DNA of 64,000 nucleotides, taken from Escherichia phage P1. Positions 40,489 to 42,857 of this stretch are shown here, piece by piece. Both the position numbers and the translations under genes were made by a program. Under the pieces are notes generated by a model, which was given only the letters and a program-made list of their open reading frames with translations, did not search any database and was not told the DNA's origin. Position 1 is the stretch's first letter. Every line of letters begins with the position of its first letter. The DNA lies in sequence record AF234173.1. The stretch is one strand, 5' to 3'.

Positions 40489-41859
40489 GTGCTAATGTCT
40501 GCATCCCCTCTTGAATCCATGCCAAATTCCCTTAGTGCAGAACAAGCTGTACTTGGTGGCTTAATGCTTGATAACTGCCGCTGGGATGAAGTTGCAGATC
40601 GTATAGTTGCTGATGATTTTTATACCAGTGCTCATCGTGAAATTTTCAGTGAGATGGAGAGGTTATTAAGTCATGGCAAACCGATTGATTTGATAACACT
40701 TGCTGAAGCACTTGAACAGAACGGTAAATTAGAACGCGCCGGTGGTTTTGCGTACCTTGCGGAGATGTCAAAGAACACGCCCAGCTCGGCAAATATTTGT
40801 GCTTATGCGGATATCGTTCGTGAACGCGCGGTTGTTCGTGAAATGATTTCCGTCGCAAATGAAATAGCCGAAGCTGGATATGCGCAGGATGGCAGGGGCA
40901 GCAATGAATTGCTGGATATGGCCGAGCGCCGCGTTTTTGAAATAGCTGAAAAACGACAAAAGAGCGGTAGTGGTCCAAAAGATATCGCCAGCATTCTCGA
41001 TGCAACGGTATCTCGCATAGAAGAGTTGTTTCAGCGACCACATGATGGTGTAACGGGGCTTGATACGGGATTTACCGATCTCAATAAGAAGACGGCAGGG
41101 CTTCAGCCGTCCGATCTCATCATTGTCGCCGCCCGCCCATCTATGGGGAAGACCACGTTTGCGATGAATCTCGTCGAAAATGCCGCAGTTCGTAACGATA
41201 AGCCCGTATTGGTTTTTAGCCTTGAGATGCCGAGCCACCAGCTGATGATGCGCTCACTGGCTTCTCTTGCACGCGTTGATCAGACTCGTATTCGGACAGG
41301 GCAACTTAACGACGAGGATTGGGCGCGGGTTTCTGGCGCAATGGGTATTCTGTTGGACAAGCAGAATATTTTTATTGATGACTCAAGCGCCCTGACGCCG
41401 ACAGAGCTACGTTCCCGCGCTCGTCGTGTTTATAAAGAAAATGGTGGTTTGAGCATGATTATGATCGACTACCTGCAACTTATGCGCGTCCCCGAGCTGC
41501 AAGATAACCGAACGCTGGAAATTGCCGAGATTTCTCGCTCACTGAAGGCGTTGGCGAAGGAATTACAAGTACCGGTGGTGGCATTGTCACAACTTAATCG
41601 ATCGCTTGAACAGCGTGCGGACAAACGACCGGTAAATTCAGATTTACGTGAATCAGGAGCAATTGAGCAGGACGCAGACCTGATTATGTTTCTGTATCGC
41701 GACGAAGTTTATCACCCGGATAGCGAAATGAAGGGCATTGCCGAGGTAATTATCGGAAAGCAACGAAATGGCCCAATTGGCACGGTGAGATTGGCTTTTA
41801 ACGGCCAATACTCACGGTTTGATAACTATGCCGGTGCTGACTGGCAAGAGGATTATTAA
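40489..41859 (+). CDS. ban: DnaB-family replicative helicase (Ban)
   Basis: 456 aa; Walker A PSMGKTT, DnaB N- and C-terminal domains. Confidence 0.9.
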   Translation: MLMSASPLESMPNSLSAEQAVLGGLMLDNCRWDEVADRIVADDFYTSAHREIFSEMERLLSHGKPIDLITLAEALEQNGKLERAGGFAYLAEMSKNTPSSANICAYADIVRERAVVREMISVANEIAEAGYAQDGRGSNELLDMAERRVFEIAEKRQKSGSGPKDIASILDATVSRIEELFQRPHDGVTGLDTGFTDLNKKTAGLQPSDLIIVAARPSMGKTTFAMNLVENAAVRNDKPVLVFSLEMPSHQLMMRSLASLARVDQTRIRTGQLNDEDWARVSGAMGILLDKQNIFIDDSSALTPTELRSRARRVYKENGGLSMIMIDYLQLMRVPELQDNRTLEIAEISRSLKALAKELQVPVVALSQLNRSLEQRADKRPVNSDLRESGAIEQDADLIMFLYRDEVYHPDSEMKGIAEVIIGKQRNGPIGTVRLAFNGQYSRFDNYAGADWQEDY

Positions 41860-42857
41860 TGCAATGGAATGAGGAAAAGCCGATGAACATCCTGATCATT
41901 GGGCGAAAATTTGCAGCCATCAGTGATGTGAAAACATATACGGAAATGTGGTCTTATAACCTGGCCTGCGCCTTTAGTGAGGCAGGGGTAACAATGCAAT
42001 ACCATCGTCCATATTCCCCTGGCGTCGAAAGCCCCGAGGATTATGTTGAAGCTGTGTTGACTGCTGCGACAGCATGTTCTGCGAAGGCCATTTTGGCACC
42101 AGGATTGAGGTATTTTACTACGGTACCCAGGGAAATAGGCATGCAACTGTGTCGCCGATTCTCTGGATGGGTAGCCCAGGTATATGACGGTTCTATGCTG
42201 GATTCGGCACCAGTCGATATTACTTTTACTGTCCGCGATGATACCTGGCGGTACCTGGATAATCCCGGTCGGTTAGAACGTCATAATCGCTTTAACAAAC
42301 ATGTTGGATGGGCAGCGAATCAGGAGCTGTTCCATCTGGAAACCAAAACGGACGATGTTCTGCGTATTTTTGTAGACCACGCTGCATTTGATGTTAGTGG
42401 TTTTGATCACTCCTTAAGTATCCTTATGAACCTTCAGCGTCTGACCGTTCCGTATGAGGCCAGAACGTTGACTGATGACGGATTGGTTACCATTGATCCG
42501 GGGAATATTTCGGTAATTCCATACAGACGGACGCCGGTGCCAGCAACCGAATTTGCAGCTGAATTGCGTAAGAGTGACGTTTTTATCGTTACGCATCCCG
42601 AAAGCCTTGGATTAACTGTTCTTGAGGCGGCAATGTGCGGGGCGTTGGTATTAACGCCTCCCGATTGCCTTCCGCCAGATCGCCTGGCTTTGGTGAACCA
42701 TATGGTTATCAAGTCGCGGATTGATTGGGATGAGGTTATTGCTCGCGTTGATCGCGTGAAAAATGCTGAAAAGGTCCAGTGTCACACCTGGTCGGCAATT
42801 GCGGAAAAGATGCTTGAGACGTTTATCACGCAGAAACCGTCGCGCGGTAACGGATAA
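41859..42857 (+). CDS. glycosyltransferase-like protein, translationally coupled to ban
   Basis: ATG overlaps ban stop (TAATG); C-terminal ...HPESLGLTVLEAAMCGALVL... resembles the GT-B donor-binding motif. Confidence 0.45.
   Translation: MQWNEEKPMNILIIGRKFAAISDVKTYTEMWSYNLACAFSEAGVTMQYHRPYSPGVESPEDYVEAVLTAATACSAKAILAPGLRYFTTVPREIGMQLCRRFSGWVAQVYDGSMLDSAPVDITFTVRDDTWRYLDNPGRLERHNRFNKHVGWAANQELFHLETKTDDVLRIFVDHAAFDVSGFDHSLSILMNLQRLTVPYEARTLTDDGLVTIDPGNISVIPYRRTPVPATEFAAELRKSDVFIVTHPESLGLTVLEAAMCGALVLTPPDCLPPDRLALVNHMVIKSRIDWDEVIARVDRVKNAEKVQCHTWSAIAEKMLETFITQKPSRGNG

Follow-up and report, generated by a model that had tools for sequence, protein, structure and literature searches.

A predicted GT4-like glycosyltransferase encoded behind the ban helicase gene of phage P1 is probably an optional member of a modular phage glycosyltransferase cassette

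Why does a gene for a putative glycosyltransferase lie immediately behind the gene for a replicative helicase in Escherichia phage P1? The window that we analyzed is a stretch of 64,000 nucleotides from this phage, and the gene in question is the open reading frame (ORF) at 41859-42857 on the plus strand. An earlier note on this DNA had proposed that the gene is translationally coupled to the helicase gene, that its product is a glycosyltransferase of the GT-B type, and that this pairing might point to glycosylation of DNA or protein linked to replication. We find that the product, Dbn, is best explained as a glycosyltransferase. The gene neighborhoods of its homologs suggest that it is probably one member of a modular cassette of predicted glycosyltransferases, and that the helicase is not its functional partner.

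The 2.6 kilobases (kb) around the ORF are 100% identical to positions 71200-73800 of Escherichia phage P1 (AF234172.1), and window coordinates are P1 coordinates minus 30800. The ORF is dbn (“downstream of ban”), which is annotated with 332 amino acids and whose G+C content is ordinary for P1. The glycosyltransferase-like nature of dbn is already known: its GenBank product line has read “function unknown, possible glycosyltransferase” since 2004, so this part of the prediction is a rediscovery. In phage P7 the gene is named glt (“putative glycosyltransferase”), and RCS47 and RefSeq use the name “glycosyltransferase family 4 protein”. The corresponding protein family, PHROG 2518, is listed as “unknown function”. 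The upstream gene (40495-41859, plus strand) is ban, as the earlier note had recognized. It matches DnaB_C (E = 5e-108) and DnaB in Pfam, is annotated in GenBank as a DnaB-type replicative helicase, and belongs to the same C1-controlled operon as dbn. The operator of the ban operon, Op72, is annotated in GenBank at P1 68667-68694 (37867-37894 in the window).

Is Dbn a glycosyltransferase? Residues 229-315 match Glycos_transf_1 in Pfam (PF00534) with 25.0 bits (E = 1.5e-5; the cut-off is 26.4 bits), and a precomputed PF00534 match exists for a protein that is 98% identical to Dbn (P0001). Structure prediction, which the earlier note had named as a check, gave a GT-B fold. The AlphaFold2 model, which was built on 20 homologs, has a predicted local distance difference test score of 88 and a predicted template-modeling score of 0.85, and it has the two Rossmann-like domains of this fold. 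The 50 best Foldseek matches listed from PDB all have the GT-B fold. Most of these are glycosyltransferases, including GlgM, PimB', BshA, transferases for lipopolysaccharide (LPS) and for adhesins, and a transferase of phage HY126; some are UDP-GlcNAc 2-epimerases. The C-terminal domain also contains the segment that the earlier note had picked out, HPESLGLTVLEAAMCGALVL (residues 246-265; 42594-42653, plus strand), with its E-x7-E motif (E248 at 42600-42602 and E256 at 42624-42626). H246, E248, G251, E256, and G261 are invariant in 20 close homologs (alignment A1) and in 57 distant ones (alignment A2). Both alignments also have an invariant D173-H174 (42375-42380, plus strand) in the first strand of the C-terminal domain (residues 168-173 in the model), and R224 is nearly invariant.

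In its two Rossmann-like domains and its C-terminal E-x7-E motif, Dbn is similar to the retaining GT-B enzymes of CAZy family GT4, such as PimA, BshA, WaaG/WaaB, and sucrose-phosphate synthase. However, it is short (324 amino acids from the start codon that we prefer, see below), it is only 9-15% identical to its structural matches, and its family appears to have the invariant D-H where GT4 enzymes usually have a phosphate-binding G-R/K. (We placed D173-H174 by eye, rather than by superposition, at what we take from the GT4 consensus to be the canonical position.) Dbn belongs to a family of its own, with 376 representative clusters at E < 1e-3 and no characterized member. A profile of Dbn gave only marginal matches to PDB sequences (the Rossmann domain of KtrA; PimA at E = 0.6). 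The gene is under purifying selection, with a ratio of nonsynonymous to synonymous substitution rates of 0.09-0.18 across 82 distinct intact alleles. Dbn is acidic (isoelectric point 5.7) and has no basic or hydrophobic feature that would suggest association with membranes; its isoelectric point and hydrophobicity do not discriminate between a membrane acceptor and a soluble one. Given the predicted fold and the invariant E248 and E256, the best explanation is that Dbn is a soluble, cytoplasmic, GT4-like glycosyltransferase with a GT-B fold, which is predicted to transfer a sugar by a retaining-type reaction.

Which genes accompany dbn in other phages? In L004 and L166 (both lambda-like), L167 (P2-like), L163 (HK97-like), and the E. 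coli phage EP_H11 (L169), the Dbn-like gene lies in one cassette with three other families, in the order PHROG 4603, PHROG 2111, Dbn-like, PHROG 1962. When we compared these partners to the whole P1 genome with tblastn, we found all three, and all three are in the window. The first, pmgO (48792-49454, plus strand), is 39-42% identical to the cassette partners and is predicted to have a Maf/sialyltransferase-like (MptE-like) fold. Its paralog pmgP (49352-49978, plus strand) belongs to the PHROG 2111 family: it is 51-54% identical to the cassette partners, the assignment is supported by a hidden Markov model, and it has a sub-threshold MptE-like match. A relative in which PmgO and PmgP are fused passes the Pfam cut-off for MptE-like. 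From these matches, PmgO and PmgP are probably transferases of the type that uses cytidine monophosphate (CMP)-activated ulosonic acids. The third partner, pmgQ (50649-51350, plus strand), is 40-48% identical to the cassette partners and appears to encode the core of the module, a GT8-like transferase of the GT-A type. The profile of the PmgQ family matches GT8 structures, namely Skp1 alpha-galactosyltransferase (E = 4.7e-5) and glycogenin, and D79 and D81 of its DLD (DxD) motif are invariant. Thus pmgO, pmgP, and pmgQ, which GenBank describes as “putative morphogenetic function”, are predicted glycosyltransferases.

The P1 cassette is split: dbn lies behind ban, and the leftward tail/baseplate operon separates it from pmgO-pmgP-ppp-pmgQ, at a distance of 6-8 kb. 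Even so, dbn is within about 10 kb of genes of the PHROG 4603, 2111, and 1962 types. The slot that the Dbn-like gene holds in other phages is filled in P1 by ppp (49960-50652, plus strand), which encodes a lambda-type Ser/Thr phosphatase (Metallophos in Pfam, and a phosphatase model in NCBIfam). Gene order indicates that ppp is not a conserved member of the module. A C1 operator, Oppp (Op83), is annotated in GenBank upstream of pmgN-pmgO-pmgP-ppp-pmgQ, at 48635-48651 on the minus strand (P1 79435-79451).

The same split is seen in L165, a phage-plasmid of Citrobacter, and in L161, a prophage remnant of Serratia: both contain all three partner families apart from the Dbn-like gene. Within the flanks that we fetched, L003 has PmgP- and PmgQ-type genes apart from its Dbn-like gene, L220 has two of the three families, and the short contigs L222 and L225 have the PmgQ type only. 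With at least 582 loci in IMG/VR, the PmgQ family greatly outnumbers Dbn. Some of its members stand alone; others are accompanied by PmgO, by both PmgO and PmgP, or by all three of the other families. Scans of IMG/VR with the Dbn alignments found only P1-like loci among the best 80; a scan of genome contigs with the close alignment found just 3 loci, and a metagenome scan with Dbn was dominated by P1-like contigs. We had also considered phi456, which has pmgQ and lacks dbn, as evidence for the module, and we dropped it as a rearranged element riddled with insertion sequences. The partners co-occur with Dbn in many unrelated phage backbones, and we therefore read Dbn as a fourth, optional transferase in a modular cassette with which temperate phages would build glycans. 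This is the best reading overall, and we think that it is probably correct.

Could Dbn instead work without partners and modify a small molecule or one particular host protein, for example to inactivate a signal or a defense factor? The co-occurrence would then reflect shared hotspots for accessory genes. The cassette of the P2-like phage is consistent with this, as it lies at the position of the P2 defense genes and beside a gene for a KAP NTPase, and the partners are missing near some relatives of Dbn. But the sharing of hotspots does not explain why the four families recur with their order unchanged in backbones that are unrelated to each other and at genomic positions that differ. Also, PADLOC gave no match for Dbn. 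We consider it quite improbable that Dbn acts alone.

Several observations do weigh against the cassette reading. The Pfam score of Dbn is just below the cut-off, and with D-H apparently at the usual position of G-R/K, its donor, or even its activity, could be atypical. Dbn, PmgO, PmgP, and PmgQ are not represented by any model in PADLOC or NCBIfam. Some relatives of Dbn have no partners nearby, both on a Brucella chromosome and in jumbo phages of Stenotrophomonas, and the relative in a kps capsule locus has only a generic MptE-like gene nearby. The co-occurrence was seen in a few dozen loci that were gathered by homology, which is not an unbiased census. Mass spectrometry of the P1 virion and two cryo-electron microscopy studies mention no glycan, which also counts against glycosylation of the virion. 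Finally, both P1 operons are C1-repressed in lysogens, which argues against classical lysogenic conversion.

If Dbn does belong to the cassette, what might be glycosylated? The four enzymes would each add one sugar during lytic growth, and they would thereby build a short oligosaccharide on a macromolecular acceptor. In P1, dbn is the last gene of the C1-controlled ban operon, and pmgO-pmgP-ppp-pmgQ are preceded by another C1 operator as well as by a late promoter. (The C1 operators and the late promoter LPpmgL are annotated in GenBank.) In other phages, the cassette is co-oriented within late operons. In three HK97-like phages (L163, L233, and L248), it is flanked by the major capsid gene on one side and by the head-tail connector genes on the other, and two of these three also encode an FkbM methyltransferase. 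In P2-like phages it follows the portal gene, and its place in lambda-like phages is between the lysis genes and terS. The co-orientation of the cassette with late genes, and the C1 operators and late promoter upstream of the P1 genes, speak for a protein or virion acceptor. Also, enzymes of the Maf and glycogenin types glycosylate proteins, which we counted in favor of a protein. We estimate that a protein (of the virion or otherwise) has somewhat less than an even chance of being the acceptor. We propose only tentatively that P1 and many lambda-, P2-, and HK97-like phages of enterobacteria glycosylate virion proteins or other proteins during lytic growth by means of a previously unrecognized modular cassette of two to four transferases, in which PmgQ may be joined by PmgO, PmgP, and Dbn.

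Mycobacteriophage Che8 and its relatives have gene sets for glycosylation of the virion (Freeman et al. 2023, as described in PMC11256854). As far as they are described there, these sets resemble the P1-type cassette in having several phage glycosyltransferases, sometimes with a methyltransferase, that act in the cytoplasm during lytic growth. The position of the cassette directly after the major capsid gene in the three HK97-like relatives is another similarity. The P1-type cassette differs from the Che8 type, as described in that source, in its Gram-negative hosts and in its enzyme families (Maf-like, GT8-like, and Dbn-type GT-B). P1 itself also differs in having these genes outside of the head operon and in that no glycan is reported on its virions.

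Another acceptor to consider is the cell envelope. On the cytoplasmic side of the inner membrane, Dbn, PmgO, PmgP, and PmgQ might attach sugars to a lipid-linked glycan, such as the lipid A-core or a capsule-type primer that is linked to 3-deoxy-D-manno-octulosonic acid (Kdo), and the altered surface would block adsorption of P1 progeny or of competitors. This would be a sub-case of the module with a different acceptor. The gene for P0182, a protein that is 42% identical to Dbn over its full length, adjoins an MptE-like gene within region 2 of a capsule locus of the kps type, and P0186 is encoded within a large polysaccharide gene cluster. In phage Chlobot, a PmgQ-like gene stands alone between int and the tail-fiber genes, as a moron with an orientation of its own, and PHROG 1962 is classed as a moron. 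In contrast to the capsule loci with ABC transporters, however, P1 and the other cassette phages lack the export genes KpsMT, KpsC/S, and KpsD/E, and the K-12 host has no capsule, so the acceptor there would have to be something else. Furthermore, the C1-repressed operons of P1, and the late-operon position in other phages, imply that the enzymes act only shortly before lysis. Dbn's acidity and its lack of a membrane-association feature do not suggest work at the membrane either, and an LPS phenotype of P1 infection is not on record in the literature that we searched. We view remodeling of the envelope by these four proteins as possible and somewhat doubtful. More broadly, a lipid-linked envelope glycan of the LPS core or capsule type could plausibly be the acceptor, at roughly a one-third share of our expectation, and an acceptor of some other kind is unlikely. 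(As dbn shares an operon with tRNA genes, we also considered glycosylation of tRNA, and we dropped this idea for lack of supporting context.)

What, then, of the helicase? If the proposal of the earlier note is spelled out, Dbn would be coupled to the replicative helicase and would glycosylate phage DNA or a replication protein during synthesis, which would lead to restriction resistance. The TAATG overlap and the co-transcription of dbn with ban are consistent with this proposal. But the similarity of the fold is generic, and GT4 enzymes of metabolism and polysaccharide synthesis score higher. The adjacency of ban and dbn is confined to P1-like elements, their junction is not conserved, and in some of these elements an inserted ORF separates them. 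None of the non-P1 loci that we examined has a DnaB gene beside its Dbn homolog; the recurring neighbors are other predicted glycosyltransferases. Transferases that act on DNA, such as the alpha- and beta-glucosyltransferases of T4 and the arabinosyl or glycosyl transferases of phages with hypermodified DNA (PMC13326640), are no more similar to Dbn than any GT-B enzyme is. In contrast to the phages with these enzymes, P1 has no pathway for hydroxylated or hydroxymethylated bases in the annotation that we read, and specifically no hydroxymethyl- or hydroxy-pyrimidine pathway gene is annotated in P1 outside of P1 48001-67199 and 86501-94800. To our knowledge, the rest of the P1 genome has no modified-base pathway either, and P1 DNA carries methylation only.

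Published genetic data bear on this directly. By CRISPR interference (CRISPRi), none of the genes dbn, pmgO, pmgP, ppp, and pmgQ scored as essential (PMC10695390). In-frame deletions of the same five genes exist (Gonzales et al. 2022; PMC9024508), and these deletions are among the 24 of 29 mutants whose plaquing and antirestriction were unchanged (PMC9024508). Restriction resistance with and without the gene, which the earlier note had suggested as a check, is therefore already on record: deleting dbn has no effect on it, so dbn lacks the antirestriction phenotype that would be expected of a T4-type DNA transferase. Overall, a functional tie between Dbn and the Ban helicase is not supported, and glycosylation linked to replication is scarcely credible and largely refuted. 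DNA as the acceptor of Dbn is very unlikely. In the literature that we searched, we found no discussion of the function of dbn, pmgO, pmgP, ppp, or pmgQ.

The proposed translational coupling of ban and dbn fared only partly better. The overlap is present: the ban stop codon TAA (41857-41859) and the first in-frame ATG of dbn (41859-41861) have one base in common, which reads as ...GATTATTAATGCAATGG... and forms TAATG at 41857-41861 on the plus strand. It is not conserved as a start, however. Outside of the P1 lineage, all homologs start with the residue that corresponds to Met9, whose ATG is at 41883-41885 (MNILIIG aligns to MKLLIIG), so the conserved coding sequence runs from 41883 to 42857 on the plus strand and encodes 324 amino acids (instead of 332 amino acids from GenBank's start at 41859). 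A Shine-Dalgarno sequence, GAGGA (41871-41875, plus strand), lies 7 nucleotides upstream of the ATG at 41883. To examine the junction, we fetched about 200 P1-like loci, with some contigs represented twice. The 324-amino-acid frame from Met9 is intact in 196 of 199 P1-like loci. In about 27 of these roughly 200 loci, an ORF of 101 amino acids is inserted between ban and dbn (for example, at 5699-6004 in L076, with about 26 other P1-like loci) and replaces the TAATG junction. These loci have an in-frame TGA upstream, as well as AAGGAG before the ATG of Met9 at the same distance as in P1, so Met9 is the only possible start for dbn there. One P1-like locus reads ATG-TAA at the overlap position. 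Thus, a stop/start overlap that is both conserved and used, as expected for translational coupling, was not found, and the overlapping ATG is probably not the start in use. In P1 itself, a Shine-Dalgarno sequence (AAGAGGA at 41846-41852) also precedes the first ATG, and because both starts have one, the upstream start would remain usable there as well.

The two genes do appear to share a transcript. There is no terminator between ban and dbn, and RNA folding identified a strong terminator 3' of dbn, a GC-rich hairpin followed by a run of T (42878-42904), between the convergent dbn and baseplate gene 5. The hairpin has a folding energy of -17.6 kcal/mol (z = -4.1), and none of 200 shuffled sequences was equally stable. 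A consensus scan for terminators and promoters had overlooked this hairpin, and folding confirmed it. In 40300-43100, the promoter scan found 1 promoter-like match, as compared to 3.9 expected from shuffled sequences. This sole match (41222-41249) lies inside ban and corresponds to the annotated sigma-70 promoter “P2dbn”. The scan gives no support for the annotated internal promoters “P1dbn” and “P2dbn”, and by these sequence features dbn is co-transcribed with ban.

We also noticed some features of neighboring genes and of homologs. pmgM (48050-48628 in the window) has a sub-threshold match to the VRR-NUC nuclease domain (E = 3e-4), so its product may be a nuclease instead of a morphogenetic protein. 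A typographical error in the product line of P1 pmgM, “norphogenetic”, has given rise to the NCBI name “norphogenetic protein”, which many members of the PmgO/PmgP family in Enterobacterales bear. In the published tables, pmgN (48695-48850 in the window) is essential by CRISPRi and non-essential by deletion; simple polarity does not explain this discrepancy because the downstream genes, pmgO to pmgQ, are non-essential. In the P2-like phage L167, the KAP-family NTPase beside the cassette has 1354 amino acids (7644-11708, minus strand) and its gene is flanked by the portal gene and by replication gene A, at the position that the tin/old accessory hotspot has in P2. A bacterial kps-type capsule locus (L164, 3801-17287) encodes KpsM/T, KpsC/S, KpsD/E, a beta-helix protein, and a transferase of 696 amino acids, and its serotype-specific region holds a close homolog of Dbn and an MptE-like gene. 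Dbn-like domains also occur in fusions: in a 552-amino-acid protein of jumbo Stenotrophomonas phages (5617-7275 in phage RAS14, L170), with a C-terminal S-adenosylmethionine-dependent methyltransferase in P0108, and with a second transferase domain in P0098.

Together, dbn, pmgO, pmgP, and pmgQ seem to represent a widespread and modular set of phage glycosyltransferases that is apparently uncharacterized. If the virion is indeed what they modify, phages of Gram-negative bacteria would have their first example of a virion-glycosylation system, and a role would be at hand for four genes of P1, a model phage, that are described as “putative morphogenetic” or as being of unknown function. Since single-gene deletions of all four exist in P1, what enterobacterial phages glycosylate is directly testable. 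The answer would bear on the host range of phages, on superinfection exclusion, and on the immune recognition of therapeutic phages.

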